This document shows, piece by piece, positions 2,236-47,819 of a stretch of DNA of 64,000 nucleotides. The number at the start of each line of letters is the position of its first letter. Position 1 is the stretch's first letter. This DNA comes from Promethearchaeota archaeon (GTDB taxonomy: Archaea > Asgardarchaeota > Lokiarchaeia > Sigyniarchaeales > SOKP01). Both the position numbers and the translations under genes were made by a program. The notes beneath the pieces are model-generated. The model saw only the letters and a list, made by a program, of their open reading frames with translations, ran no database searches and was not told the DNA's origin. Location: NCBI GenBank assembly GCA_016930515.1, contig JAFGGO010000108.1, positions 1-64,000 on the forward strand, written 5' to 3'.

Positions 2236-3330
2236 CTATCCCCTATATAATGATTTATAATAAAATGCGCAACCAACAGCAAGGGCCGAAGAACTGATGC
2301 GATCGTGAATGTGGACCACATCTTCAAATCTTATAATATTGAGAATTCCGAGCATGTTCAATACTTTTTTAATTAAAAATTCACCCGCCAAACCAGTAAT
2401 AACAAATTTGATATCACTTTTATTAAAAACAGATAATCTTTCTTTTAATTCATTCAAAAACGCTATTAACTCGTCCTTTATTATTTTTAATTGAGCATTA
2501 TATATATACAATGCAATTGTTTCAAGTTCTTTTTGAGTAATTGTTTCTTTATCGAGACATATTACTCGAGCGAGTCTTGCGTAGCAATCTTCAATCGATT
2601 TCGTTCGATTGTCTGCGGTTTCTATAAAGTATTCTTTTTCTGATATGTATCCCAGAACTCTATGCACATCAGCAATTAACGCAAATTTTTCAAAGGATAT
2701 CCTTAAATGCTTACCCTTATAAGGTACGAAATGGGTTATCGAGGGGATAGTAGCTCTCAAACCACCAGTGTAAACCAACTCGTGGTGCATGATTCGAGAT
2801 ACATCGTCTTGTCCTACAGTAACGGGAAGAGAATCTAAAATTGGGATGATATCAATTGTTGTTGATCCTGCGTCTATTAAAACGCATAGGGGCTCGTAAT
2901 GACCAAGAAATAACGCTGTTGAAACCCAATTCGCAGCCGCAAGACTAAGATAGGATTTTCTCGCTTCTTCGATTCTGAGATATTCGTTTTTATTGCTTAT
3001 AAAGCGTAGTTTATCTGCTTTAAAAACTTGTTCTAACACATTGAGTATTCTTAGGATTCCTTCCTTTTTCGTTTGAAACGCATCGGAAAGTTCCGCAGTG
3101 ATGGAAACACATACAAAATCGAAATTATTCTCGTCGATATTAAAACCATGCGTGCAATTTGCAGTAATTATTTTTAGCATCCTTGGAATATCATTCAAAT
3201 TATTTTCCCAAAAGGGAAAATATTCTATACAAGAATAAGAATTCACGATTTCACCGTTTTTAAAGCTAACAATCGCGGCTTTTGTATTTGCACCCCCAAT
3301 ATCTAAACCCAAGATTATTGGATCTTTCAT
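2236..3330 (-). CDS. mfnF: hydantoinase A/oxoprolinase-family protein, MfnF-like (H4MPT/methanofuran-linked C1 pathway)
   Basis: LGLDIGGANTK, TAELSDAF.TK.EG, AAANW, DAGSTTIDIIP, ELVYTG.LR, ARLARVIC.D. Confidence 0.8.
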   Translation of the reverse strand: MKDPIILGLDIGGANTKAAIVSFKNGEIVNSYSCIEYFPFWENNLNDIPRMLKIITANCTHGFNIDENNFDFVCVSITAELSDAFQTKKEGILRILNVLEQVFKADKLRFISNKNEYLRIEEARKSYLSLAAANWVSTALFLGHYEPLCVLIDAGSTTIDIIPILDSLPVTVGQDDVSRIMHHELVYTGGLRATIPSITHFVPYKGKHLRISFEKFALIADVHRVLGYISEKEYFIETADNRTKSIEDCYARLARVICLDKETITQKELETIALYIYNAQLKIIKDELIAFLNELKERLSVFNKSDIKFVITGLAGEFLIKKVLNMLGILNIIRFEDVVHIHDRISSSALAVGCAFYYKSLYRG

Positions 3331-4370
3331 TGTTCAAATCTCTCTTGCAAGTGAAGAATTAATTCTTGCGAATTTTCTCCCGTTAAGGCATTTGTCAAAA
3401 AATAACTTCCTTTTTTTAAATTAATTCTTTCAATAAGGTGATTAATTTCGGATTCTTTGGCCAAATCCATTTTGTTCAAGACGACAATGATTTCAATGTT
3501 TCCGTCTTTCGAAAAATTTTGCGTAATTTCTTGGTATAAATCCAATTGGGAATTCACACTATAACCAGAAGAAGGTGTCGGATCAAAAACGAAGATAATA
3601 ACATCAGCAATGAGCTTTAATGCTAATATGGCTTGTAATTCAATGGCGTTTCTTTCTGACATGGGGCGATCTAATATACCTGGAGTGTCCATTATTTGAA
3701 CTCGAATCTCTTCGAACCGCTTTTTGATGATCAAGTGTCCAAGAATTAATTTTTTCGTCGTAAATGGATATTCTTGTACTTCAATTTTTTTATTAGTTGA
3801 AATGAGCTTTACTAAGCTGCTCTTACCAACATTCGGCGCTCCTGCACACACGACGCACGGTTGCGTGTAATCTAACGAGGGGATGCTTCTTAAGGCTCCT
3901 CTTAACCCGTTGAGATATTTTAAATTCTTATCTTGCTTATATAATATCGACGAAACCCTTCCAAACGTCGCCCTCCTGATTTGATCTCCTTCTTTCGGTC
4001 GTTCTATCTTGTTCAATTGTTTGACGGATTCCCTTTCAATCTTACTAAGAACTGGTAATATTCCATTTAATTTTCCCAAGGTTAATTTTAACTCGTCAGC
4101 ATCAACAAGGATCGAAGCGAGTTCCCTGTAGAAATCTGGAAGTTCGTCAATTATTGGAACGCTTTTAATAATCTTTAATATTTTATCGATAATAACCTTT
4201 ATAGCAACCTTGATTCGTTCGCCTTCTTTTTTCTTTGCCTTAATGAGAATCGGAGCATTAGTTGAAACCTGAGTAGAACTTCTCATGGCTTTTTTAAACG
4301 CAATATCGAGCACTTTTTGGGAGGTTGGTAAGTACGCAAAATTAAGGAAGGGATTGTCCATTATTCTCAC
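3327..4370 (-). CDS. NOG1-family (Obg-like) GTPase, ribosome biogenesis
   Basis: N-terminal helical domain (PDFYREL, FGRVSS); GAPNVGKSS, YPFTTK, DTPGILDRP, ERNAIE.QAILAL, NKMD; ATG at 4361 is an alternative start; ATGA overlap with mfnF. Confidence 0.9.
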   Translation of the reverse strand: MRIMDNPFLNFAYLPTSQKVLDIAFKKAMRSSTQVSTNAPILIKAKKKEGERIKVAIKVIIDKILKIIKSVPIIDELPDFYRELASILVDADELKLTLGKLNGILPVLSKIERESVKQLNKIERPKEGDQIRRATFGRVSSILYKQDKNLKYLNGLRGALRSIPSLDYTQPCVVCAGAPNVGKSSLVKLISTNKKIEVQEYPFTTKKLILGHLIIKKRFEEIRVQIMDTPGILDRPMSERNAIELQAILALKLIADVIIFVFDPTPSSGYSVNSQLDLYQEITQNFSKDGNIEIIVVLNKMDLAKESEINHLIERINLKKGSYFLTNALTGENSQELILHLQERFEQ

Positions 4371-14156: not shown

Positions 14157-16208
14157 TTGAATGTCTCTAACTATTTTTCATCCAACGAAAAGTGGCAGAT
14201 TAACAACTTTTCAAAAGATGAACTGCTCGGAGTTAAACAAAAACTTGTCGATCTGAAAGAAAAAAGCACGGATAAACAAGAAATTGACGAATTTGTCGAA
14301 CAAAGCTTATTCAATCAACAAATACTCGAAAGGTTCACGCGTTATCTCTCTTATGCTGATGAACTCACTCGTTATTTAAAACAAAAGAATTACAGGCTTC
14401 CTTTAACAGTTCTCACAGGTCAATTGAAGGATCAAATTGAACTCATATTAAAAAGTCTTTCCAATCTTATTCAAAACGCCCGAAATATAAAAAGATTCTT
14501 AAAAGACACCTCCTTTATAGATGAATTGCTAAAGCCAAGCCAAATCATGTCAGATAAATGTAAAGAAATGATCTTGGAACTCGATACTTTTAAAAACTAC
14601 GAAAATCCAATATCTTCTGATGATATTGAATTATGGATCGATATAAATAAGATAAAAGACAATAATATAACACTTCAAGGCATACCTGATACTTTAAAGG
14701 CTTGGGACGAAATTCTCGAAATTAAGAATTATTTTGAATCTCTCACCAATATAGACAATAAGAAGAAAAAAAAAGGTATTGTTCATTCAATACGATTTTC
14801 AGACCTTTTCGATTTTCTCGTAACTAAATCAAAAGAACAAAAAAAAATTTTTGCTAATTTCGTTTACTTGCTACGAGAACAGGATATAATTCGCGAGTTC
14901 GAAGATGAGTTTATAAATGTCCATTTAAAAAAGGAAATTACTAAAGCTCTGAAGGATTTAATCGTTCCCATTTTTTCCAAAGTTGTTAAGGAAAAACTAA
15001 ATGTTATCGTGGAAGAAACAATGGATGTCGACAAGCTTGCACCTCTTGGTGAAGATCAACAACATTTAGATGCAAGAGAATTACTAGAACAAAAATTAAG
15101 TGCTTTCCTCCCCCACCTTGCTTCATATTATTGTACTGGGCTTGAAAAAAAATATCAAGATATTATTAACGAAGTTGACGATTTAAATGAATTTAACAAC
15201 ATAATCGAGAATTACTCCTCTAAGATCGATATTTTCATTTCTATTATCAATTCAATTGAAGGAAAAGTCAAAATATTAGAATATTTACTCGAACCATACA
15301 AAAAAATAACGGAATCACTACGGAAAATTCTAACAAACTTGATTTCTGAGTTAGAAAGGAGGAAAAGCGAATACGAATATTATTTGAAAACCATAAAAAA
15401 GGAACGGTTAAGGGACAACATTAACTCTTTTGTTTCTGACCAAATTAAAAAACTCAACGAATATATTAGCGAATACGAGGACCAAACATCACTATTGATT
15501 CGAGAAGAATTTCCCCAAATAAAAAAAATGAGAAAAATCCTTGGTAATTGCAAAGAAAACATCCAGGAACTCAAAGCCGAGATTCACGCAAAATTAGATT
15601 CAGTAAAAAATAAAGACCTCGATATTCACCAAATAATTAAGCGATGGGAAGACAATTATAACAAGAAGAAAAATCAATTAAATTTCCTTTTATCGCTTAT
15701 GTTTACAAAAATATTTAAAAATTTCAAAGAAATCATCGAAGAGGAAGAATCCTTTTTTGATAATATCGCAGATATCACTAATCAAGACAATTCTCTTGAT
15801 GATTTGCCGCTTAATTTTACTTTATCGAGCGTTGTTGCGGATAAGATGACTGACGAAGAATTAAAAGACCGGTTAACTGAATTAAAAGCACGAATTAGCA
15901 AGAACGAAAAGACCATTGAACTTTATCAGAAAGAAATGTCAAAAATGGAAGATATCTTAGAAACTCGCGTGAAGTTGAGAGAAGGTATCACGGACTCAAA
16001 TGTAAAATGCGCTGTATGCCATCAACTAATTAAGTTTGGAAAAGAAAACCTCATAAAATGTCCGTTCTGTGAGAGTGCCTACCACTATCTCTGCGTGGCC
16101 TCTTGGTTAGCAAAACACAATGCTTGCCCTACCTGCCAGAATGTATTTTTGGATCCAAATTCAAACTTCTTCGATGTGCAAGAAGAAGAAGAAAATAGCC
16201 ATATATAA
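14157..16208 (+). CDS. long coiled-coil protein with a C-terminal RING finger (putative E3 ligase)
   Basis: C-x2-C-x13-C-x2-C-x4-H-x2-C-(VASWL)-CPTC. Confidence 0.8.
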   Translation: MNVSNYFSSNEKWQINNFSKDELLGVKQKLVDLKEKSTDKQEIDEFVEQSLFNQQILERFTRYLSYADELTRYLKQKNYRLPLTVLTGQLKDQIELILKSLSNLIQNARNIKRFLKDTSFIDELLKPSQIMSDKCKEMILELDTFKNYENPISSDDIELWIDINKIKDNNITLQGIPDTLKAWDEILEIKNYFESLTNIDNKKKKKGIVHSIRFSDLFDFLVTKSKEQKKIFANFVYLLREQDIIREFEDEFINVHLKKEITKALKDLIVPIFSKVVKEKLNVIVEETMDVDKLAPLGEDQQHLDARELLEQKLSAFLPHLASYYCTGLEKKYQDIINEVDDLNEFNNIIENYSSKIDIFISIINSIEGKVKILEYLLEPYKKITESLRKILTNLISELERRKSEYEYYLKTIKKERLRDNINSFVSDQIKKLNEYISEYEDQTSLLIREEFPQIKKMRKILGNCKENIQELKAEIHAKLDSVKNKDLDIHQIIKRWEDNYNKKKNQLNFLLSLMFTKIFKNFKEIIEEEESFFDNIADITNQDNSLDDLPLNFTLSSVVADKMTDEELKDRLTELKARISKNEKTIELYQKEMSKMEDILETRVKLREGITDSNVKCAVCHQLIKFGKENLIKCPFCESAYHYLCVASWLAKHNACPTCQNVFLDPNSNFFDVQEEEENSHI

Positions 16209-16954: not shown

Positions 16955-18211
16955 ATGTCGATCAAAAACGAATTGAAAATAATAGGAGAATATGCTAAAA
17001 AAGCGGCTTTTGAATTAAAGAACACTCCTACATCAATTAAGGACAATGCTTTACTTCGGATGGCCGATCTTCTAGAAGATAAAGCGAAATTAATTATTGA
17101 AGCAAACAAAATAGATCTTCAAAATGCCCGTAATAACGGTCTCGAACAAGCTAAAGTCGATAGACTTGTCTTGAACACTGATAAAATCCATAAGATAGCG
17201 GAAGGTTTGAGAGAAGTATCTGCTCTCCCTGATCCAATCAACGAAGTAATCTCGATGTGGAGAAGACCAAATGGATTGGATATTGGACTTATACGAGTTC
17301 CATTGGGCGTCATCGGTATTATTTACGAATCAAGACCGAATGTGACTGCCGAAAGTACTAGCTTGGCTTTAAAAGCAGGGAATGCCATCGTTTTAAGAGG
17401 TGGTAGCGAAGCTATTAATTCAAATATCGCTATTGCAGATATACTCCACGAGGCTGCAACACTAGAAGGCTTGCCCGAACATTGCATTCAAATTGTCCGC
17501 AAGACTGATAGGGCTTATGTAGGCGAAATGCTTCGCTTAAAAGATTATATCGATGTCATTATTCCAAGAGGTGGTGCTTCACTGATACAAAGGGTCGTGC
17601 AACACTCTTTAGTTCCAACAATAGAAACGGGGATAGGTATCGTGAGTTTGTTTGTAAATAAGGATGCAGATTTAGATATAGCAGAAAAAATCGTTATAAA
17701 TTCTAAATGCTCGTATCCCGCAGTTTGCAACGCTTTAGATAAACTCTTATTGCATGAGGATTTAAAGGAATCTTTCGTGGAAAGAATCGTCAAATCTTTA
17801 AGAAATAACGGCGTAGAGGTTATGGGATGTGAACAAACTCAAAAAATTGTCGCCGATGTGATACCTGCAACGGAGGATGACTGGGGGGCAGAATATTTGT
17901 CGTTAAAAATTTGCATTCGGATCGTTAAGGATATTGACGAGGCCATACAAATAATAACCAAATACGATTCAAAACACACGGAATCTATCATTACTGAGAA
18001 TTACAAAGACGCAAGAAAATTCTTAGACCGGGTTGACGCCGCAGCCGTCTATGTAAATGCCGCAACCCGTCTAACTGATGGTGGTGTTTTTGGTTTAGGA
18101 GCAGAAATAGGCATCTCAACGCAAAAACTTCACGCAAGGGGTCCAATGGGAGTGAAGCAACTCACTTCTACAAAATACATAATCTACGGAAGCGGTCAAA
18201 TTCGAGAGTAA
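16955..18211 (+). CDS. proA: gamma-glutamyl phosphate reductase
   Basis: VPLGVIGIIYESRPNVT, LRGGSEA, IPRGG, VCNA, GAEIGISTQKLHARGPMG. Confidence 0.97.
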   Translation: MSIKNELKIIGEYAKKAAFELKNTPTSIKDNALLRMADLLEDKAKLIIEANKIDLQNARNNGLEQAKVDRLVLNTDKIHKIAEGLREVSALPDPINEVISMWRRPNGLDIGLIRVPLGVIGIIYESRPNVTAESTSLALKAGNAIVLRGGSEAINSNIAIADILHEAATLEGLPEHCIQIVRKTDRAYVGEMLRLKDYIDVIIPRGGASLIQRVVQHSLVPTIETGIGIVSLFVNKDADLDIAEKIVINSKCSYPAVCNALDKLLLHEDLKESFVERIVKSLRNNGVEVMGCEQTQKIVADVIPATEDDWGAEYLSLKICIRIVKDIDEAIQIITKYDSKHTESIITENYKDARKFLDRVDAAAVYVNAATRLTDGGVFGLGAEIGISTQKLHARGPMGVKQLTSTKYIIYGSGQIRE

Positions 18212-19250: not shown

Positions 19251-22200
19251 TTAAACCCGATACAGTTCAAATACTTCGTCGACTAAGTATCCAGCGTTAC
19301 TGAAGGATGTGAGTTCTCCCCTCCAGTTTTTCAAGTTGGATTTATAATATTTTTCAAACTTTGTTACGAATATCTTTTGTTTTTCCCGAATCCACTCGGA
19401 TCCCTTCCCGTCAATAAATAACGCAACTAGGATATTCTCGCCTTGTTCTAACATGATTTCAAATTCTTGGTAGGCCATTTTTTCAATAGGGATTCTCTTT
19501 TTTTTAATCTCGAGACTGAAGTCTTGAATTGCTGTTAAAAACCCCCCAATTAGATCAGAGTCTACTTGCCAGTCTCCTAATTTCCTATTATATATGGTTG
19601 CACCTACTTGGTTGTGGATGACAATAATATATCTCAACCCTAAAATTTCTTTCTTAATAGGATCCTTTTCCTTGATAATCTTGTCTTTCATTGCGTTCTT
19701 TTTTATTGTTGATAATTCTTCGAGTTGTCCCATCAACCTTAGCGTATTATTCTTAGAGTCAAGTTCCCCAAATAAGCGAGCGTTTGAAATCAGGTCAATC
19801 AGTTTGAGTTTTAATTGTTTGGGTTTTACTTTCATCATCTCGCTTAAGGAATGCAAGTCAATCCGCTTTCCCTTGAAAGCGTTAACATAATATTCCACCT
19901 TTTTAATGAAAAATATCTCGCTAATTTTATAAAATATGGTATCAACAGAGAGCTCTATTGAGGATTTAGAAGATTTCCATTGGTCTATCTCTTTTTCAAC
20001 AGAACTTTTAAATGTTTTATAGTTCCTCGATTCCAATTTAATATAATCCTTGATTGTATCGTCTAAGCTTTTGATCAAATTTTTAATATGTGCGACTTCG
20101 GAATTGAATTTAAGTTCAAAATCACCGATATTTCTCTTAAATTTAAGAACTTCGCTATAATTGGCTTCGAGTTGGGTTATCTTTTTTTCAATCTCTCCTT
20201 TTCCTGAGCTAATTAATTCGCTTAATTCTGATTTCTTTTCGATAGATCCGGTCGTGTCTAGTTCTCGTGCTAAAAGCTGCTCAATTTCATCTAATTCAAC
20301 TGAAATCTTTTCCTTTTCGTTTTCCCAATGGGTGATTAACTCCTTTTCAATTTCACTGATCCCACTGAATTGTTCGATAGATTCCTGGAGGAACAATTTA
20401 AAATCTCTGTCGTAAATTTTAAGTTTTTGATTAATTTCGATTTGCATTTCTTTTCTCTTTGTTTCTGCGTCGTTAAAATTCTTTACCTTTATTAATGCCT
20501 CAGTCGTTAATTTCAAGTTCTCCATGAGCCATTTTAAGTCTCCCTCGTAATCATCAAGTTTTTTAAATAATTCTTCTCTACGGACAATATCCAAGCCTGA
20601 ATATATCCTATTACCCAATTCCTCAGAGATTTGCTTCCATTTTACTTCTTCTTCCTTTAATTTTTCGTCCCAATTAATCTTGAGATCCGATGAATAATTA
20701 GAAAAAATTTCGACTTTTTGCTCGATACCTGAAAGGAGTTGAAAAAACGCCTCGTTTTCGACTTGACTTAAATTCTTAAAATTTTCGTTCCTCTCGTTTA
20801 AAAAATCTGAGCTTTTTTTTAGCTCGTTATTATTAATTAAACTAATTATCTGGATGCTGTTATCGTCAAAAAAATGCTGTAGCTTTAATATCTTACTTGA
20901 GATATATTTTTTTACTTCCTTGCGGTTTTTTATTACTTGTTCGTATAAATCTAAATGTCTTTCAGCGTTTAGTTTTATTCCGTTCCAAGAGTTCTTTACT
21001 TCTTCTAATCTTTTTTTATAAGTATCAAATTTCAATGTAGGGGATATGGCTGAAATTTTCGATGTTATATCGAGGTTTGCTTTCTTGATAAACTCTGTAA
21101 GAGTATGAGCTAGTTTCTCAGAGGCTTTTTTCTCGGTTAATTCGATGAGGAATCGTAGTTTTTCAGAGACTTGATCTTTCTGATTCTCTAATTGGTCAAT
21201 AGAAGAGAATTCCTTGCTTTTCTTCGTTCTCTCCGCTATATATTCCTCTTTTTCCTTAATTTCCTCGACTAAATCCTTTATTTCTCTTTTAAGGATACCT
21301 TGAATTATCTTTTTATCCACTTCCCAATCCAACTCTAAATTCGATATAACAAAGGTTGAATTTACAAAACGATGATTAGATTTAACTTGATAAATGAGAC
21401 TATCAATTTTTCTGGTTCTTATTCCAATATATTCTCCCATTTCGTTAACTTTTTCTTTTGCTTCAAAAATATTTTCAGAATCGATCGATAAACGAGATTG
21501 ATTTGCTTGGAAATCGATATATTCAACGGAGTGATGTTGTATGTTCCTCAATTGTAAGATAATATCCTTTATACGCATTTTTTCGCCAAGTATCTCTCGA
21601 TAAAGAACGGGCGATTCAAGGTGGATATATTCTTTTAAAACAGCAAAATCCACAAAAAGGCTTTTCTTTCTCGAGGATTGAATGTTTCCCATTAAAAAAT
21701 TATTTATTAGCAGGTCGTTTATTACTAATTTCACGCGTTCTAAAGCGTTAGAAAAGGAAAATTGCTTGCTAAACTCGTTTAAATCGATCTGCTTGCTCTT
21801 TGGATTTTTTATTATAAATTCCATGAGCTTCGTAATTATTTCTCTGGGGATAATATTTTGGAAATTGAGATATTTGTCGTAGAGGGATTCTTTATCTAAT
21901 ATCGTTCCTTCTAACCATTTATTTGAAATAAGCCAATTTGCGATGTTTTTAACGAGTTCTGGACTCACCAAATAATTCTTACTGATTGGAAAGAAATAGA
22001 TATTAGCTTTTTCTCGCGAAGAAAGCACGATTTCGGTTTCAATCATATCTATTATTTCGTTCCAGATGTAATACATCACGAGAATGGCTCTCGTACTACT
22101 AACTAGATCTTGTTCCTTTACGCTAATGCTGGTGTATTGATTGGTAAATCCTCCATTATCTTGTTGCATCGTTTTTAAAAAGTGAATTAGGTCTCTAAAA

Positions 22201-22961
22201 TCAACACCTTTTAATTTGCCAATTAAACCCAATAATGTTATGGCCCAATATAAATATTCCACTGAAGGATACTCGTCACTTATTTTAAGTCCGAGTTTAA
22301 ATATTTTCAATTTTTGAATTTTTTTATCAATATTAATTCCTTCAATATCTTCAAGTAATATTAGGCAAAATAAGTGATAAAAAGATTCAATATCATTTAT
22401 TGGTTTAAATTTTTTCAAAAAAGAAGTTATCTTTCGCTTATTAATCTTTTTCACTCCATTCAATAGGTATAGAGCGGAAAGAGAGTAAAAAGTAGCTTTT
22501 ATTGAGGATGTACCTTGACAATCTATCGGGCATTGACTTGAAGTACAATGAATAAATCCCCCATCCTCTTTTGACTCTATCTTTTGTGATTTTAGCACAT
22601 ATATAATGTCTTTTTGTTCGATAAAGTCATCAAATCCCAATAGTTTTAATGTTCCAATGCAATAAAAGGTGCTATAAATATCTGCTTGGTCCGAAGAAAC
22701 AGAAGCCCTGTGGCCTCCTAAAGGATGTTTTAAATCTACGATATATTTTTTAACGAGATTCTTGTTGGTAATTAGATCTATTTTATCCATTTGAGAAAGT
22801 AAAAGTACTGTCCAGAACAGAGATTCGCTAGAATTGTACATGTTTCCATTTAAAATGTTGTTTTGAACGAATTCCATTGCTTTTTCAATATTAATTGGGA
22901 TTGGTAACTTATTTTCACAATACATAAGTTCTGGAATCCAAGGAATATGGAATGAAATCAT
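19251..22961 (-). CDS. multidomain protein: prenyltransferase-beta (alpha/alpha barrel) repeats + winged-helix/PCI-like motifs + coiled coil + C-terminal longin domain
   Basis: Repeats HPLGGH..ADIYSTFYCIGTLKLLG, Q..EDGGF..IKATFYSLSALYLL, QQDNGGF..DLVSST; WH motif RIDLHSLSEMM...LIDLISNARLFGELD; longin YIIVIHNQVGATIY...DSDLIGGFLTAIQDFSLEI. Confidence 0.8.
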   Translation of the reverse strand: MISFHIPWIPELMYCENKLPIPINIEKAMEFVQNNILNGNMYNSSESLFWTVLLLSQMDKIDLITNKNLVKKYIVDLKHPLGGHRASVSSDQADIYSTFYCIGTLKLLGFDDFIEQKDIIYVLKSQKIESKEDGGFIHCTSSQCPIDCQGTSSIKATFYSLSALYLLNGVKKINKRKITSFLKKFKPINDIESFYHLFCLILLEDIEGINIDKKIQKLKIFKLGLKISDEYPSVEYLYWAITLLGLIGKLKGVDFRDLIHFLKTMQQDNGGFTNQYTSISVKEQDLVSSTRAILVMYYIWNEIIDMIETEIVLSSREKANIYFFPISKNYLVSPELVKNIANWLISNKWLEGTILDKESLYDKYLNFQNIIPREIITKLMEFIIKNPKSKQIDLNEFSKQFSFSNALERVKLVINDLLINNFLMGNIQSSRKKSLFVDFAVLKEYIHLESPVLYREILGEKMRIKDIILQLRNIQHHSVEYIDFQANQSRLSIDSENIFEAKEKVNEMGEYIGIRTRKIDSLIYQVKSNHRFVNSTFVISNLELDWEVDKKIIQGILKREIKDLVEEIKEKEEYIAERTKKSKEFSSIDQLENQKDQVSEKLRFLIELTEKKASEKLAHTLTEFIKKANLDITSKISAISPTLKFDTYKKRLEEVKNSWNGIKLNAERHLDLYEQVIKNRKEVKKYISSKILKLQHFFDDNSIQIISLINNNELKKSSDFLNERNENFKNLSQVENEAFFQLLSGIEQKVEIFSNYSSDLKINWDEKLKEEEVKWKQISEELGNRIYSGLDIVRREELFKKLDDYEGDLKWLMENLKLTTEALIKVKNFNDAETKRKEMQIEINQKLKIYDRDFKLFLQESIEQFSGISEIEKELITHWENEKEKISVELDEIEQLLARELDTTGSIEKKSELSELISSGKGEIEKKITQLEANYSEVLKFKRNIGDFELKFNSEVAHIKNLIKSLDDTIKDYIKLESRNYKTFKSSVEKEIDQWKSSKSSIELSVDTIFYKISEIFFIKKVEYYVNAFKGKRIDLHSLSEMMKVKPKQLKLKLIDLISNARLFGELDSKNNTLRLMGQLEELSTIKKNAMKDKIIKEKDPIKKEILGLRYIIVIHNQVGATIYNRKLGDWQVDSDLIGGFLTAIQDFSLEIKKKRIPIEKMAYQEFEIMLEQGENILVALFIDGKGSEWIREKQKIFVTKFEKYYKSNLKNWRGELTSFSNAGYLVDEVFELYRV

Positions 22962-23131: not shown

Positions 23132-23923
23132 TTATTTTTGAGCATTAAAAAAAGTACCTTTCTCTTCTCCAGTTAGAATTTTTTTTATAATAGATTCTTC
23201 ATCAAATGAGGTTATTATCGCTGGAATGCCAATATTCGTTAACTTCTTTATTGCGTTGATTTTGCTTTTCATTCCTCCAAATGTGATTCCTCCGTCGATG
23301 TCATCAACTACTTTTTCGATGTCCTCGGTGATACTATTTACATTTGTTATTAATTTTGCTCCAAGGTGTTTTTTTGGATTTTTATCGTATAAACCATTAA
23401 CATCTGTAAGGATAATCAATAAATCAACATATAATAGTGTTGCGACTAAAGCCGAAAGAGTGTCATTATCTCCGTGTCGGAGTTCCTCAATTGCAACGGA
23501 GTCGTTTTCATTAATGATTGGTACAATATTTTTTTCAAGAAGAACCTCGAGAGTATTCCTCACATTAGATCTTCTCTTAGCATCCTTAGTATCGTCTGCG
23601 GTAAGTAATATTTGACCAATGTTCAAGCCGTACTTGTTGAATTCATTTTGATAAGTACTCATTAAGGCGATTTGACCCACTGAAGCAAGCGCCTGAAGCA
23701 TTTTAAAATCCTTTGGACGATTTATCAAACCTAATCGAGCTAGTCCACATCCTATAGCCCCACTACTGACTATTACAACGGAACGCCCTTCAAGAACTAT
23801 CTCAGATACTTCCTTGACCAATTTGCTTATTTTATCCTCATATATTCTTGCCTTTCCGTCAGTAATGAGTTGGGTGCTCACTTTAATGACTATAGTCTTA
23901 ACATTTGAAAGAACGCTTCTCAT
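23132..23923 (-). CDS. proB: glutamate 5-kinase (no PUA domain)
   Basis: VSSGAI, ASVGQ, GQILLT, VPIINENDSV, GDNDTLSALVA, GGMKSKI. Confidence 0.95.
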   Translation of the reverse strand: MRSVLSNVKTIVIKVSTQLITDGKARIYEDKISKLVKEVSEIVLEGRSVVIVSSGAIGCGLARLGLINRPKDFKMLQALASVGQIALMSTYQNEFNKYGLNIGQILLTADDTKDAKRRSNVRNTLEVLLEKNIVPIINENDSVAIEELRHGDNDTLSALVATLLYVDLLIILTDVNGLYDKNPKKHLGAKLITNVNSITEDIEKVVDDIDGGITFGGMKSKINAIKKLTNIGIPAIITSFDEESIIKKILTGEEKGTFFNAQK

Positions 23924-27460: not shown

Positions 27461-28450
27461 ATGAAGATTTATTTAGTCGACAAGGGAGAACTCAAGCAAA
27501 TTGACAAGTTAGTGTTTTCTACAGGCGATGTATACTTAATCGACGACGAAAAGACCATTTTCATATGGATTGGGAGCAAGTGTAGCGTTGACGAGAAAAC
27601 TAGTGGTGCCGCTCAAGCACGAAAGCTCGATCAAGAGCGTGGAGGTGCGGCTAAGATAATAACGGTTGATCAAAATCAAGAAACTGCTGAATTCCTCAAG
27701 CTCATTGCGAGCAAGGGTACTATGAAAATCGTGGAAAAAAATATTGCCAAGACTATGTTGAAAGATGTGATGACAGGCGATTTTGCTGGTTTTACAGAAC
27801 ATGTAAATGTACTTTATCGGGTTTCCTCCGAAGAGTTCGAAGACATCAATGCGATGAAAATGATACAAGTTCCGTTTTCGAAAGACTCGTTGGATTCCGA
27901 AGATTGTTTCGTGTTAGATATGGGTACGGATGTGTATGTTTGGCAAGGAAATGCTTGCAATGTAAAGGAAAGGGTCAAATCTGGCCAATGGGCAAGACAA
28001 ATTGATGCGGATCGCGCAGGAGAGCAAAACAAAACCATTTGTGAAGAAGGCGACGATGCGGCTTTTCTTTCAGCTTTAAGCAAGGGTGAACACTACAAGG
28101 AATCTGACGCCGTCCAACTTTCTGCTGATTCTGATTTAGAAAAGGAATCCGAGATGGACAAAATCGCAGCATCCGTTCATAAAGAACACGAGGCGACAAT
28201 TAGTGACGCCGCTCCCGAAACCTCAGAATCAAGCGCGTCTTCTGCCGGACCCGGCATACCCGGATCGTCTGATGGATTACTTACCATCGAAAAGATGGAA
28301 GGTCGTCGGAGGTGTCCAAATTGTGGAAACGAAAACAAGTCTTTAATTCACGAATCTGTTGACAAGGGAAATATTATTCTCGATTATCCACGAATGTATG
28401 GTAAAAAATACAAGTGTGGAGAATGTGGTCAAGAGTGGAGAGAAAAATAA
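27461..28450 (+). CDS. two-domain gelsolin (Asgard 2DGel-like) with an acidic linker and C-terminal Zn ribbon
   Basis: GDVYLID...IFIWIGSKCSVDEK; SLDSEDCFVLDMG.DVYVWQG.ACN.KER; CPNC...CGEC. Confidence 0.9.
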   Translation: MKIYLVDKGELKQIDKLVFSTGDVYLIDDEKTIFIWIGSKCSVDEKTSGAAQARKLDQERGGAAKIITVDQNQETAEFLKLIASKGTMKIVEKNIAKTMLKDVMTGDFAGFTEHVNVLYRVSSEEFEDINAMKMIQVPFSKDSLDSEDCFVLDMGTDVYVWQGNACNVKERVKSGQWARQIDADRAGEQNKTICEEGDDAAFLSALSKGEHYKESDAVQLSADSDLEKESEMDKIAASVHKEHEATISDAAPETSESSASSAGPGIPGSSDGLLTIEKMEGRRRCPNCGNENKSLIHESVDKGNIILDYPRMYGKKYKCGECGQEWREK

Positions 28451-37849: not shown

Positions 37850-40180
37850 TTAATTCCTTTCTTTTACTGGCATAAATATTTTAAAAAAATCCCGTTTTAC
37901 CTTGACATTACCTTGAAAGTTAACAATCATCCGATTACCTGAAAGGTTAACGGCGTGGAAACTACTGTAATTTCGCCCAAATCCTATAAAAGTAACAATA
38001 TCTCCATTATTTAGATTAGAGTCCAATTTAGAGGAATCTTTTATTCTTAAAAAGGTTCCAGATTTCAAATCTTCGAGCGAATTGATATTATGAATCGTTG
38101 CGAAAGAAAAAGAACCCGAATAATTTTCAAAAATGTAATCGTGAAGTTGCTTAAGTGGTTTTTTTTCGATTTTAATGGTTTCTCCCTTGATTCCCCTTTT
38201 TGCTATCAATAATGCCGCAATGGCGTGATCCACGAAACCTTTTGCTCTCACTTCGTTCACCAACTTGCCTTGTTGTAAATGAAACATTGCTTCTTTAGTC
38301 GTTTTAAATTCGTCTACTAAAAAGATATCGGGCGGTTCGAAGCGATTTTTTAGAGGTACATTTTCTTGTTCCATTCCTTCTAAATCGTTCAGGTTAGATT
38401 TTACGCAGGATAAATTATCGCAAGGTATACCAAAATATTCAATGAAAAAATCGATGATAAAATCGGAACCAGGACCGTGCCCCACGAAAATCTTGTTGAT
38501 CAATTCCTTTTTTTCGCTAAAAAACAACCCGAGTTCTTCTTCGATTTGCTGTTTTGCAACGCTTTGAGATCTAAGGTCCTTGATGTTGCTCTTTAAATTC
38601 ACATACCATAGTTCTGGCAATTCTCCGTGTTGGATGAGACAAAATCCAAAATGTCTCGTCCCAGGATCTACGGCTAATATCACTTCTTTTTGCTTAAATG
38701 TAAAGAGGTTGATGTCTGCCTTTCCTTTAGATATTTTCATCAATGAATTGAAAAAAGGTTCGAACTCTTGGTTTTTAATTTGTAGAAAAAAATCATGAGC
38801 TTGACTTTGGTAAAGCACTTCGATGTTGTATTTTTCGATTAAGGAAAAAAGATCGTGGTAATTTTCAACTTTCACAATGATATCTTGGCGAGGATCTATT
38901 TTAATTATTTTAACTTTCTCTACTGCTTTTGCTATGGCTTGGGCAATGTCGTCCTCGTTCTTTCCCGAAAGAATGTCCACATGAAGTCCGTCTAGATGGA
39001 ACGCTTCGTAAGCCGTCGAAGCACCTAGTAAATCGAAAAGTCTCTTTTCTTGGTTCCCCCCTCTTGAGATTGTTAATTTTTTTCTCGTTCGTGGGAAGAT
39101 TCTCACGCTTGCCGAGTTATATTTCCCCTTGCTAGGTGCATTTATCGTGATGACTCCTTTTAATTTTGAACTAATTACTTTAAATTCAATGAGATCTTCT
39201 AATTTCTCCTTTATGAAATCGAATTGGAGATCGCCAAGAACTAATATGTTAATATTTTTATTGTTTACAAAGAAATCAAAGGATGTAATTACTTTTTTCA
39301 GGTTTTCAAGGATCTCTGTCGCAATCTTAAATTTTTCGGGATCGTCAATATTAATTACGAATTCCTTGCGAGGATGTAAGTTGGACAAAAGCCCTGTTGT
39401 CTTGGGTGGTATGAATTTGCCATCATGATATTGGGTTCCTAGTTCAAACTCATTTTTTACATTTAGGCTAATCGTGACAATTTCGCCTTCAAGTGCCTGC
39501 TTTAAAGGAGAATTAGCCAGAGAAACCACTTGTCTTATCTTGATTTTATCGTTTAACCATTGTCCTGATTTTAAGGCTCCAGAAGTAAGACCAATGTTCA
39601 GCATCTCGCCAAGACCTTTCCGTTGTTTAAATCCTAATATTACAAAGGCCAATTCAGAATTTTCAAACTCTCTTTTTTTAAGATGAACGGAAATCCTTTC
39701 AATTAAATTCTCAATCCCCGTGATCTTTTTTGCAGATGTTTGGATTATCGGAATTCTTTCTTTCCCAAGCTTTTTTAACTCTGAATTGATTCTTTCAACA
39801 TTCGAATTAGGTAAATCCATTTTTGTTGCTGCGATGATGATAGGTAAATCTCTTTCCCGAGCTTTTTCGTAAAGCCAGTGTGTTCTAGCTTGGAAACCGT
39901 CCGTTCCAGAAATAACCAGTACTAAAAGGTCTGCAAATTCCAATCCCAAGGCAATACCTCCTTGAAAGTCGGCGTGACCCGGAGTGTCTAAAAAATTAAG
40001 CGTTAAGCTTTGTCGTTTCAAAACGAACTGAATGACCTTGAGGGACACCGTCGTACCGTGAGAAAGCTCGTAATCTAAATTATCGGGAAACTTTCCTACT
40101 ATTGCCTCAATCAAGCTTGATTTGCCGTGTTGAGCGTGTCCAGCAACTAGAACATTTAAAATTCTTTCCTTAGTAACCAT
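37850..40180 (-). CDS. translational GTPase (compact EF-G/EF-2-like domains I-V) fused to a YqgF/RuvX-like RNase H-fold domain
   Basis: GHAQHGKS, E..HGTT, DTPGHADF, TKMD, TSAK; domain III LGDLQFDFIKEKL; ILAVDPGTRHFGFCL, VGHGPGS, VDEFKTTKEA, VDHAIAALLIA. Confidence 0.85.
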   Translation of the reverse strand: MVTKERILNVLVAGHAQHGKSSLIEAIVGKFPDNLDYELSHGTTVSLKVIQFVLKRQSLTLNFLDTPGHADFQGGIALGLEFADLLVLVISGTDGFQARTHWLYEKARERDLPIIIAATKMDLPNSNVERINSELKKLGKERIPIIQTSAKKITGIENLIERISVHLKKREFENSELAFVILGFKQRKGLGEMLNIGLTSGALKSGQWLNDKIKIRQVVSLANSPLKQALEGEIVTISLNVKNEFELGTQYHDGKFIPPKTTGLLSNLHPRKEFVINIDDPEKFKIATEILENLKKVITSFDFFVNNKNINILVLGDLQFDFIKEKLEDLIEFKVISSKLKGVITINAPSKGKYNSASVRIFPRTRKKLTISRGGNQEKRLFDLLGASTAYEAFHLDGLHVDILSGKNEDDIAQAIAKAVEKVKIIKIDPRQDIIVKVENYHDLFSLIEKYNIEVLYQSQAHDFFLQIKNQEFEPFFNSLMKISKGKADINLFTFKQKEVILAVDPGTRHFGFCLIQHGELPELWYVNLKSNIKDLRSQSVAKQQIEEELGLFFSEKKELINKIFVGHGPGSDFIIDFFIEYFGIPCDNLSCVKSNLNDLEGMEQENVPLKNRFEPPDIFLVDEFKTTKEAMFHLQQGKLVNEVRAKGFVDHAIAALLIAKRGIKGETIKIEKKPLKQLHDYIFENYSGSFSFATIHNINSLEDLKSGTFLRIKDSSKLDSNLNNGDIVTFIGFGRNYSSFHAVNLSGNRMIVNFQGNVKVKRDFFKIFMPVKERN

Positions 40181-47282: not shown

Positions 47283-47819
47283 TTAATTCAAATGAATTTT
47301 ATTTTTTAGAGCAGCTTTTTTTGTAAGCTCGGTAAAGGCTTCCTCAACGCTTTGACCTGTTTTTGCTGATGTCTGGATGTAAATGCTATTCTTTTCGTTG
47401 GCAAACTCAAGAGCCTTGTTTTTCTTTATTGTAGAACCGATCTCTTTAATTAAATCTAGTTTATTCCCAATCAGAATGAATGGTACATCATTCCCACAGT
47501 ATTTAAGCAATTCAGGATACCAAGTATTTATAACTTTTTGAAAGGTGTCTGGACGAGTAAGATCAAAAATTAATAAAGCACCGCTCGTTCCACTATAATA
47601 ATTACTACGCATGGTTTTAAACCTTTCCTGTCCTCCAACATCCCAAATTGTTAGCGTAACCTCGTCTTCTTTAAACTTTACCTTTTTATTCAAGAAATCA
47701 ACGCCCATCGTCATTCTATACGATTGACTAAACTGATTGTTGATGAATCGGTTAAGAAGGCTCGTTTTTCCTACTGACCCTGGTCCGAGAAGCGTCAGTT
47801 TTAAGTGATATTCTACCAT
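47283..47819 (-). CDS. Rab-like small GTPase
   Basis: GPGSVGKTS, TMGVDF, IWDVGGQERF..MR.NYY.G, GNKLD, TSAKTG. Confidence 0.93.
   Translation of the reverse strand: MVEYHLKLTLLGPGSVGKTSLLNRFINNQFSQSYRMTMGVDFLNKKVKFKEDEVTLTIWDVGGQERFKTMRSNYYSGTSGALLIFDLTRPDTFQKVINTWYPELLKYCGNDVPFILIGNKLDLIKEIGSTIKKNKALEFANEKNSIYIQTSAKTGQSVEEAFTELTKKAALKNKIHLN

Follow-up and report, generated by a model that had tools for sequence, protein, structure and literature searches.

A prenyltransferase-like barrel joined to winged helices, a repeat stalk and a longin domain in a Loki-type Asgard archaeon: a candidate scaffold or tether

The gene, its conservation and its distribution

The window analysed here is a 64,000-nucleotide stretch of DNA from a Loki-type Asgard archaeon. 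Among its genes is an uninterrupted open reading frame with no internal stops, whose product combines an α/α toroid related to RabGGTase β, two winged helices, a long helical stalk, a third winged helix and a C-terminal longin domain (Table 1). The component folds are already known; the architecture is new, and no publication describing the protein was found. Many eukaryote-like trafficking components, among them small GTPases, longin domains and roadblock domains, are encoded in Asgard genomes, and we know of no cellular job for them. Here, one polypeptide unites a RabGGTase-β-type barrel, PCI winged helices and a longin platform.

Table 1. Features of the gene and its product, with positions in the window
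Feature	Position	Strand	Basis
Whole gene (P0001), stop codon included	19251..22961	-	1236 aa, single ORF
α/α toroid, pseudo-prenyltransferase head, aa 20-315	22017..22904	-	AF2, Foldseek, VIA, Pfam PF00432
HCx4Cx3C cluster (HCTSSQCPIDC), putative Zn knuckle, aa 138-148, loop of barrel repeat 2	22518..22550	-	Alignment of homologues
SVEYLYW, counterpart of the RabGGTB Zn-ligand motif DVCYSWW, aa 233-239	22245..22265	-	Profile alignment to 6o60_B
First winged helix, aa 318-357, ends KWLEGTI	21891..22010	-	Model elements E320-322, H323-329, H334-346, E352-356; pLDDT >90
Second winged helix, long wing, NFLMGNI, aa 358-450	21612..21890	-	Model elements and invariant columns
Helical stalk, five tandem ~113-aa repeats, aa 477-1040	19842..21533	-	hhalign of repeat sub-alignments
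Third winged helix, PCI type, RLFGEL, aa 1027-1078	19728..19883	-	Pfam PF01399, VIA
Linker, low-confidence, variable, aa 1079-1106	19644..19727	-	pLDDT <50, variable columns
Longin domain, best-conserved part, aa 1107-1236	19254..19643	-	VIA, homodimer model, profile

At least 18 further assemblies from Asgard archaea of the Loki, Hel and Hermod types encode full-length relatives (38-86% identity), and the Loki-type class appears to take in the relatives labelled Hel and Hermod. The order of parts is identical in 19 full-length homologues (1191-1368 aa) from independent samples and lineages. Mean column identity in their alignment is 51% over the full length and 80% within the longin domain. 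Orthologues are present in all five genomes of the genus and also in other families of the class, on contigs that reach 1.48 Mb. When 400 Asgard genomes were searched, strong matches were restricted to the window's own (Loki-type) class, with a single weak 299-aa match elsewhere in the phylum.

The genome of the window is assembled in 190 contigs and is 94% complete with 5.3% estimated contamination. The contig number and the contamination are the only formal point in favour of the fusion being an artefact of assembly or gene calling, or a decaying pseudogene. This explanation is vanishingly improbable, given the uninterrupted frame and an architecture common to 19 proteins at the conservation described above; these homologues, together with the orthologues on large contigs, rule out an assembly or gene-calling artefact. 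The fusion proposed in an earlier, sequence-only reading of the locus is genuine and conserved. The neighbourhoods of the gene gave no functional hint: it adjoins proB in the window, is flanked by proB and proA in a relative of 39% identity, and lies among purine genes in a Hel relative. No GTPase gene was found among the adjacent or syntenic genes.

The barrel head and the loss of its catalytic features

Based on the AF2 model (pLDDT 87.8, pTM 0.86), the head is a complete and strongly conserved six-hairpin α/α toroid of PF00432 repeats. In VIA, residues 20-302 align with RabGGTase β (1dce_B, chain residues 15-304) at a Z of 26.2, with an rmsd of 2.5 Å over 263 aligned residues and 21% identity, ahead of GGTase-I β (Z 24.7) and FTase β (Z ~23). 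Foldseek matched the head to 1ltx_B (E 1e-7), and Pfam PF00432 (Prenyltrans) was detected both in the whole protein (E 3e-13) and in residues 1-320 (E 2.6e-15). The family profile recovered human RabGGTase β at E 1e-17, and in the ESM Atlas, eukaryotic RabGGTB clusters are the closest in shape. The RabGGTase-β-like N-terminus recognized from the letters was therefore confirmed. Compared with RABGGTB, the β subunit of Rab geranylgeranyltransferase (GGTase-II/III; 1dce_B, 6j74_B and 6o60_B), the head has the same complete toroid with an identical helix order, but it carries the HCx4Cx3C insertion in repeat 2 and is fused to ~920 more residues.

The zinc ligands of RabGGTB are D238, C240 and H290 (rat numbering), and its diphosphate is bound by R232, K235 and H190. 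A profile alignment to 6o60_B, collinear over query residues 153-275 and chain residues 145-282, places the RabGGTB segment LPDVCY on YPSVEY, with D238 replaced by S233 and C240 by E235. From the offset of the structural alignment, the equivalent of H290 is S288 in DLVSST. All three zinc ligands are thus substituted, as had been suspected, and the family columns at these positions hold no Cys or His (S/T for D238, variable for C240 and S/T/N for H290). R232 aligns with I227, in a column that is I/S across the family, K235 aligns with E230, a position where some homologues have Lys, and the loop bearing H190 is deleted. A search of the 94%-complete genome for a PPTA α subunit with PF01239 gave nothing above the cut-off; the hits below it were all ordinary TPR proteins, the best candidate being one of 270 aa, and the α subunit is likely absent from this genome. 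Additionally, the last five residues lack Cys in every one of the genome's 46 top-scoring Ras/Rab-like GTPase matches. Judging from these sequence comparisons, the head is not a canonical protein prenyltransferase, because the zinc triad and the diphosphate residues are lost and both the α subunit and Cys-ended GTPases (among the 46) are missing. It clearly exemplifies the reuse of a prenyltransferase β barrel that has neither its catalytic site nor an α subunit, and this reuse bears on the origin of the eukaryotic protein-prenylation enzymes.

The inserted HCTSSQCPIDC cluster, also pointed out by the sequence-only reading, is a putative Zn knuckle. Its residues H138, C139, C144 and C148 are invariant across the 19 homologues, and the pattern HCx4Cx1-3C is conserved in three paralogue types, including TM-type and third-type proteins from other genomes. 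The knuckle is predicted to lie at the barrel mouth, where its sequence position is given by the alignment and its spatial position is inferred.

Winged helices, stalk and longin domain

The three winged-helix or PCI-like motifs noted earlier (KWLEGTI, NFLMGNI and RLFGEL) all fall within winged-helix elements of the models. In the second winged helix these elements are H370-385, E391-393, H394-398, H406-419 and E423-448, and the stretch from F397 to I427 is the best conserved of the N-terminal half. The third winged helix matches Pfam PF01399 over residues 1032-1074 (E 5e-6, 27.1 bits against a cut-off of 22), a match that covers only profile positions 38-80 of 84, and in VIA it resembles the winged helices of PCID2, CSN and the proteasome lid at Z 9-10. 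MarR-type and Z-DNA-binding winged helices are also matched, at Z 8.5-9. Like the PCI proteins (PCID2, COP9 signalosome and proteasome lid), the third winged helix passes the Pfam PCI cut-off, and the first two share the PCI sequence pattern. However, the N-terminal helical-repeat half of PCI was not identified in the Asgard protein, and its winged helices sit within another architecture.

A rod of ~550 residues leading to the longin domain had been read as a long coiled coil. The long helical stalk, which lies between the second and third winged helices, was upheld, but it is not a featureless coiled coil, since hhalign divides it into five repeats that align in register (R3-R4 94.9%, E 5e-8; R4-R5 95.8%, E 8e-9; R1-R4 61%; R2-R4 66%). 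Every repeat has an F-x11-14-W motif with conserved aromatics (W546, W659, W764, W879 and W995), and Gly/Pro breaks are limited to ~1 per repeat. Insertions of 122 columns in homologues amount to about one repeat unit. The repeat length and the conserved Trp are suggestive of a spectrin-type repeat, a three-helix bundle of ~106 aa; the only spectrin match, to Spectrin_SYNE1 and in one of nine proteins, scored 18.3 bits where the cut-off is 35.

The C-terminal longin domain expected from the sequence was supported by both the order of its secondary structure (β-β-α-β-β-β-α-α in the AF2 model) and its structure matches. Nearly all VIA matches of residues 1107-1236 are longin domains, at Z 8.9-11.4 over 120-130 residues, including Fuzzy (7q3d_C, Z 11.4), VAMP7, Mon1-Ccz1, sedlin, Sec22 and a Loki longin (8yqg_B, Z 8.9). 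The AF2 model of this part is weak (pLDDT ~45-80), and dimer runs with ESMFold2 reach 86-87. The Asgard domain therefore has the same fold and order of elements as the eukaryotic longins (Fuzzy of CPLANE, Mon1-Ccz1, HPS1/4, TRAPP sedlin and synbindin, VAMP7 and Sec22), and a like fold to the solved Lokiarchaeota longin dimer 8yqg_B. It differs from the solved longins in its sequence, with just 6-11% identity, in terminating a very long stalk, and in having no Pfam longin model above the cut-off: residues 1095-1236 of P0001 gave zero Pfam matches, and its homologue P0017 gave a weak match to Fuz_longin_1 (E 0.098). PF19036 is present in 22% of the members of a neighbouring atlas cluster (score 0.88). 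A profile search with the longin part returned 2693 cluster representatives, and the module recurs widely as a terminal domain, joined to TPR, HTH and Ig-like regions.

The longin domain is predicted to homodimerize in the roadblock/longin manner. The predicted pair scored an ipSAE of 0.67 against 0.01 for the best control, where the ipSAE mark is reached by 20 of 30 proteins solved as pairs and by 1 of 23 solved as single chains. Its pLDDT is at least 86, and contacts agree from run to run by at least 97%. The predicted interface comprises residues 1131-1153 and 1157-1167, that is, helix α1 and the following edge strand. The prediction may have its source in a likeness to solved longin/roadblock dimers.

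A scaffold or tether, and its alternatives

In P0170 (G000 contig C57, 1475 aa), a paralogue in the window's genome, homology covers the barrel, the two N-terminal winged helices, the end of the stalk and the final PCI winged helix; identity is 25% over residues 27-505 (E 5e-18) and over residues 874-1068 (E 4e-5). Where the 1236-aa protein has its linker and longin domain, P0170 carries a C-terminal hairpin of two transmembrane helices with a KKKK tail. The TM-type paralogue has likewise lost the Zn triad and has a longer stalk than the 1236-aa protein; its knuckle in P0170 is kept without the last Cys (HCx4C), while the other paralogue types keep the whole motif. It is much more widespread than the longin-ended protein, being present in 8 further genomes inspected, and about 50 genomes of the family have matches of ~1470 aa. 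Two longin genes flank P0170 in the window's genome, but this is not so in 10 other genomes. By analogy, the TM-ended paralogue suggests that the C-terminus of the 1236-aa protein is its anchoring end, and this membrane-anchored sister family turns the question of which end is anchored into a concrete, testable hypothesis.

We tentatively propose, with a probability of about 0.45, that the 1236-aa protein serves, probably as a homodimer, as a scaffold or tether with no catalytic activity; on present sampling it is almost confined to the Loki-type class, and this function is inferred from the architecture alone. The longin domains would pair through helix α1 and the next edge strand, like roadblock/longin platforms. 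The longin dimer would then form the docking end at a membrane-proximal site, because the same-headed paralogue swaps the longin domain for a C-terminal transmembrane hairpin. Its docking partner could be one of many Ras-superfamily small GTPases, of which the genome has 72 matches with no candidate singled out, or another longin or roadblock protein. The stalk would keep the two barrels at a distance from the docking site, and the barrels would bind a hydrophobic ligand or peptide rather than work as transferases. The sequence-only reading had suggested an isoprenoid-binding tether or GTPase regulator. A tether or regulator fits the anatomy and is strengthened by the paralogue with its membrane hairpin; the isoprenoid-binding part is weakened, as R232 and H190, and partly K235, are not kept. 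The further suggestion of that reading, an origin earlier than protein prenylation, finds no support: among the 400 Asgard genomes, strong matches stay within the Loki-type class.

With the His-Cys3 site predicted at the mouth of the barrel, there is room for a non-canonical catalytic role, in which this metal site would replace Asp-Cys-His. The head would then alkylate, for example prenylate, a thiol with no α subunit, on a substrate brought in through the winged helices or by the longin domain. The barrel is complete and strongly conserved, the four residues are invariant and the motif is found in all paralogue types but P0170, and the cluster lies in a loop before an inner helix of repeat 2, the kind of position that the Zn ligands have in repeats 4 and 5 of RabGGTB. 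However, a Zn ion bound by four protein ligands would have its coordination filled, as is usual in structural knuckles, and the barrel of the relatives L036 and L037 has extra zinc-ribbon-like Cys pairs. Given also the missing R232 and H190, the lack of an α subunit and the absence of Cys-terminated GTPases among the 46 best matches, an active transferase is very unlikely.

It is also conceivable, but unlikely, that the protein is a sensor-coupled GTPase regulator rather than a tether, with the longin dimer acting as GEF or GAP for an Asgard Rag/Arf/Rab-like GTPase and the barrel sensing a metabolite or lipid and acting through the stalk. The nearest longin structures are subunits of GEF/GAP platforms (Fuzzy, Mon1-Ccz1, HPS1/4 and TRAPP), the predicted dimer has platform geometry, Ras-superfamily proteins are plentiful in the genome, and related longin modules end many signalling-type architectures. 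Nevertheless, the GTPase genes are neither adjacent nor syntenic, and a stalk of ~560 aa is unusual for allosteric coupling. Since the TM-ended paralogue retains head and stalk without the longin domain, the function of head and stalk would be independent of GTPase regulation. Highly improbable is a structural role on chromosomes or nucleic acids, with winged helices binding DNA or RNA and an SMC/Rad50-like stalk. One source does label a homologue 'DNA repair exonuclease SbcCD ATPase subunit', owing to the stalk, and the matches to MarR-type and Z-DNA-binding winged helices point the same way, but the ATPase head is absent, the best winged-helix matches and the Pfam match are of the PCI type, which serves protein-protein assembly, and P0170 is membrane-anchored.

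The layout of the proposed tether is reminiscent of the golgins, which include the TM-anchored giantin, golgin-84 and CASP and the GTPase-anchored GRIP/GRAB golgins. In golgins too, a long helical stalk connects a capture module at the N-terminus with a C-terminus anchored by a TM segment or through a small GTPase, and these two anchoring modes would, by analogy, be mirrored by the two Asgard paralogue types. They differ in that their head and anchor have no sequence or fold homology to the Asgard protein, and we know of no endomembrane system in these archaea. It is distinctly unlikely, though worth stating, that Loki-type archaea own a golgin-like tether pair with a RabGGTase-β-derived head that captures lipid or peptide, one member anchored by a TM hairpin and the other by a longin dimer and GTPase, and that the link between the RabGGTase-β fold and longins existed before eukaryotes. 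In eukaryotes, GGTase-III (RabGGTB) acts on the longin SNARE Ykt6, and PDB entries 6j74 and 6j7x are among the structure matches.

Fusion and a head lacking canonical catalytic features

The gene of P0001, the protein under study, is a single open frame whose start codon is agreed on by homologues, and the surrounding window is AT-rich, with a GC content of approximately 31-43% in 2-kb blocks. A search of 5.8 billion proteins returned 18 more relatives of full length, with identities of 38-86% and lengths of 1191-1368 aa, annotated in their sources as, for example, "hypothetical"; the source labels of the named ones are Promethearchaeota, Helarchaeota or Hermodarchaeota. All 18 align end to end with P0001 and keep its parts in the same order, and therefore the fusion is real and the misassembly against which the sequence-only reading had cautioned is excluded. 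No paper describing this architecture was found in full-text literature searches.

The sequence-only reading had placed a barrel resembling the β subunit of Rab geranylgeranyltransferase (RabGGTase) at the N-terminus, and this is what was found. The head matches the Pfam prenyltransferase α/α toroid PF00432 (E 3e-13 with the whole protein, 2.6e-15 with aa 1-320), and the AlphaFold2 (AF2) model of aa 1-470, built from an alignment of 19 full-length family members, is confident (pLDDT 87.8, pTM 0.86). RabGGTase β chains rank first in Foldseek (1ltx_B, E 1e-7), and a second structural aligner superimposed residues 20-302 on residues 15-304 of rat RabGGTB with a Z-score of 26.2 (rmsd 2.5 Å, 263 aligned residues, 21% identity), ahead of GGTase-I β (Z 24.7) and FTase β (Z about 23). 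Eukaryotic RabGGTB clusters are also the nearest shapes in the ESM Atlas. No stand-alone relative of the head (228-830 aa) turned up at E ≤ 1e-5 when searched for by words. The N-terminal peptide (W8, K18) is also conserved.

The family profile is collinear with human RabGGTB (E 1e-17). In the numbering of the rat enzyme, Asp238, Cys240 and His290 are the zinc ligands, and Arg232 and His190 are diphosphate sites. The RabGGTB motif LPDVCYSWW aligns to YPSVEYLYW in P0001, so that Asp238 becomes Ser233 and Cys240 becomes Glu235, and the equivalent of His290, placed through the offset of the structural alignment, is Ser288. Across the family and its paralogues the Asp238 column is Ser/Thr and the Cys240 column is variable, with Cys in neither, while the His290 column holds Ser, Thr or Asn. 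The replacement of the zinc ligands proposed earlier is thus borne out. In the profile alignment, the diphosphate-binding Arg232 gives way to Ile/Ser, and the loop that carries His190 is missing. No PPTA-repeat α subunit was found in the genome, the best candidates being ordinary TPR proteins (PPTA-like matches on contig C150 were rejected on this ground), and among its Ras/Rab-like matches the 46 with the best scores all lack a C-terminal motif containing Cys. The head, although of the prenyltransferase fold, thus fails the enzyme's defining features. The 365 residues of a PF00432 protein from contig C130 were also considered as a stand-alone β subunit and rejected: a signal peptide and a C-terminal transmembrane (TM) segment place this protein outside the cell, and it matches the head profile weakly (65% probability).

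The extra His-Cys cluster that had been noticed in the barrel is an invariant feature, with H138, C139, C144 and C148 unchanged in all 19 aligned sequences. It lies in the loop ahead of an inner helix of repeat 2, and its pattern, HCx4Cx(1-3)C, is preserved among distant orthologues as well as in paralogues of two types from other genomes. Two longin-ended orthologues, L036 and L037, carry an insertion of about 70 residues with several zinc-ribbon-like CxxC pairs between the helices of barrel repeat 1-2, and L037 is without the HCx4C motif. We regard the cluster as a putative structural zinc knuckle.

Winged helices, stalk and longin

The second of the two winged helices behind the head is the most conserved stretch in the N-terminal half. 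A long rod had been expected to follow, and a helical region of about 560 residues is indeed present, although it is not uniform. It consists of five units of about 113 residues (R1-R5), marked by a recurring, conserved F...W pair (W546, W659, W764, W879 and W995), and profile-profile comparison matched the units in register (R3-R4 94.9%, R4-R5 95.8%, R1-R4 61%, R2-R4 66%). Insertions of 122 columns, approximately one unit, occur in three homologues. Parts of every unit show strong heptad periodicity, and Gly/Pro breaks number about one per unit. The stalk gave no meaningful match in PDB sequences, Pfam or a protein atlas, and a spectrin-like fold was considered and found unsupported by the Pfam and PDB-sequence searches. 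At its end, a third winged helix scores above the Pfam PCI cut-off, and its model matches winged helices of the same type in PCID2, the COP9 signalosome and the proteasome lid at Z 9-10. A variable linker then leads to the longin.

The C-terminal domain is the best-conserved part of the protein (80% mean column identity). Its AF2 model is weak, yet the order of secondary-structure elements is that of a longin, and an exhaustive structural search returned almost exclusively longin domains, in agreement with the earlier assignment: Fuzzy (Z 11.4), VAMP7 (11.0), Mon1-Ccz1 (10.5) and a solved Lokiarchaeota longin (8yqg_B, 8.9), together with sedlin, Sec22, synbindin, BLOC-3 and adaptin σ/μ. Pfam and NCBIfam gave no match to this part, and searching PDB sequences with a profile of the longin alignment produced only chance-level matches to Bcl-2 A1. 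The longin profile finds 2693 cluster representatives, in which the domain is usually C-terminal behind diverse N-terminal parts (TPR, HTH, Ig-like). Such reuse is in line with the shuffling of Asgard roadblock/longin domains that Liu et al. describe (bioRxiv 10.1101/2020.10.19.343400) and with a structural survey by Tran et al. (PMC10933270).

Prediction with two longin copies gave an ipSAE of 0.67 against 0.01 for the best control; among proteins of solved structure, 20 of 30 pairs and 1 of 23 single chains reach the ipSAE mark. The partners had a pLDDT of at least 86, with at least 97% contact agreement between runs. The longin is thus predicted to form a homodimer by symmetric pairing of helix α1 and the next strand (aa 1131-1153 and 1157-1167). 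This is the known roadblock/longin mode, and therefore the passing of the controls may partly reflect likeness to solved dimers.

Features of P0001, its window and related loci
Feature	Location	Strand	Remarks
P0001 gene	window 19251-22961	-	1236 codons
Head	P0001 aa 20-315
First winged helix	P0001 aa 318-357		pLDDT >90, AF2 model
Second winged helix	P0001 aa 358-450		pLDDT >90, AF2 model
Stalk	P0001 aa 477-1040
Pfam PCI match in third winged helix	P0001 aa 1032-1074
Longin	P0001 aa 1107-1236
proB	window 23132-23923	-	282 bits
Likely proA	window 16955-18211	+	aldehyde-dehydrogenase family
Gelsolin protein	window 27461-28450	+	two repeats, E 3e-30
RING-H2-like protein	window 14157-16208	+	683 aa, finger below Pfam cut-off
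Rab-like GTPase	window 47283-47819	-	178 aa, E 1.6e-50
Ras-like domain protein	window 37850-40180	-	776 aa, domain N-terminal
Weaker Ras-superfamily match	window 3327-4370	-	347-aa ORF
P0170, TM-ended paralogue	contig C57, L018:4000-8427	+	1475 aa
Longin gene upstream of P0170	L018:2497-3879	+	E 1.5e-14 to P0001 longin profile
Second longin gene flanking P0170	L018:8462-9031	-	E 2.5e-9 to P0001 longin profile
L036, longin-ended orthologue	G125:C315		1338 aa
L037, longin-ended orthologue	G123:C186		1310 aa
L038, third paralogue type	G128:C2:134400-138800		1291 aa
PF00432-ABC protein	contig C76, L016:2696-5977	+	1093 aa
P0169	contig C137, L017:2069-5089	-	1006 aa

Paralogues, distribution and proposed role

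The paralogue P0170 has the head, the winged helices, a longer stalk and the last PCI-like winged helix. Its homology to P0001 takes in the barrel together with the two winged helices that follow (25% identity, E 5e-18) and, separately, the end of the stalk with the final winged helix (E 4e-5); the last Cys of the His-Cys motif is missing, and the C-terminus is a two-helix TM hairpin followed by a KKKK tail. Among 400 genomes of the phylum, proteins of this type (about 1470 aa) occur in about 50 of the family's genomes and are far commoner there than the longin-ended type. Strong P0001 orthologues were found in each of the genus's five other genomes, in three genomes from a second genus and in another three families belonging to the class, with a single weak match outside the class. 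This narrow distribution does not favour the suggestion that the family predates protein prenylation. The third paralogue type has the head with HCx4CxC and neither ending, in a genome that also encodes the longin and TM types.

We infer, with a probability of roughly 0.45, that P0001 is a dimeric scaffold or tether. Its C-terminal end would serve as the anchor, through a longin platform in P0001 and the TM hairpin in the paralogue, and the N-terminal barrels may bind a ligand or peptide. Such a protein would work like the golgins of eukaryotes while standing outside that group. That P0001 is instead a sensor-coupled GTPase regulator seems rather unlikely. A non-canonical enzyme that uses the His-Cys3 site, described here as a putative zinc knuckle, we consider improbable; a nucleic-acid-associated scaffold appears slightly less probable still. 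Almost no weight can be given to an artefact, against which the collinear full-length relatives speak.

Genomic surroundings

The gene directly upstream of P0001 is proB (glutamate 5-kinase); its reading as an isopentenyl phosphate kinase was rejected, as that profile scores 53.6 bits against 282 for proB. The likely proA lies two genes off and points the other way. At L020, in a relative of 39% identity, proB and proA enclose the P0001-type gene and all three run in one direction, and in a Hel relative the gene sits amid purine genes. The neighbourhood is uninformative on function. The longin genes flanking P0170, the upstream one of which also encodes TPRs, were rejected as conserved partners, being absent at the TM-paralogue loci of 10 other genomes, where the shared neighbours are GlcD/GlcF-like and helicase genes.

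The eukaryote-like gelsolin-repeat and RING-finger (C-terminal) genes near P0001 are typical of Asgard. The window also holds three Ras-superfamily matches, and the genome has 72. Further PF00432 proteins are encoded elsewhere in the genome: one combines the repeats (E 4e-29) with an ABC-transporter ATPase domain, and P0169, whose PF00432 repeats (E 5.6e-16) lie between a signal/TM segment at the N-terminus and a TM segment at the C-terminus, is an extracellular toroid protein of a layout unrelated to P0001.
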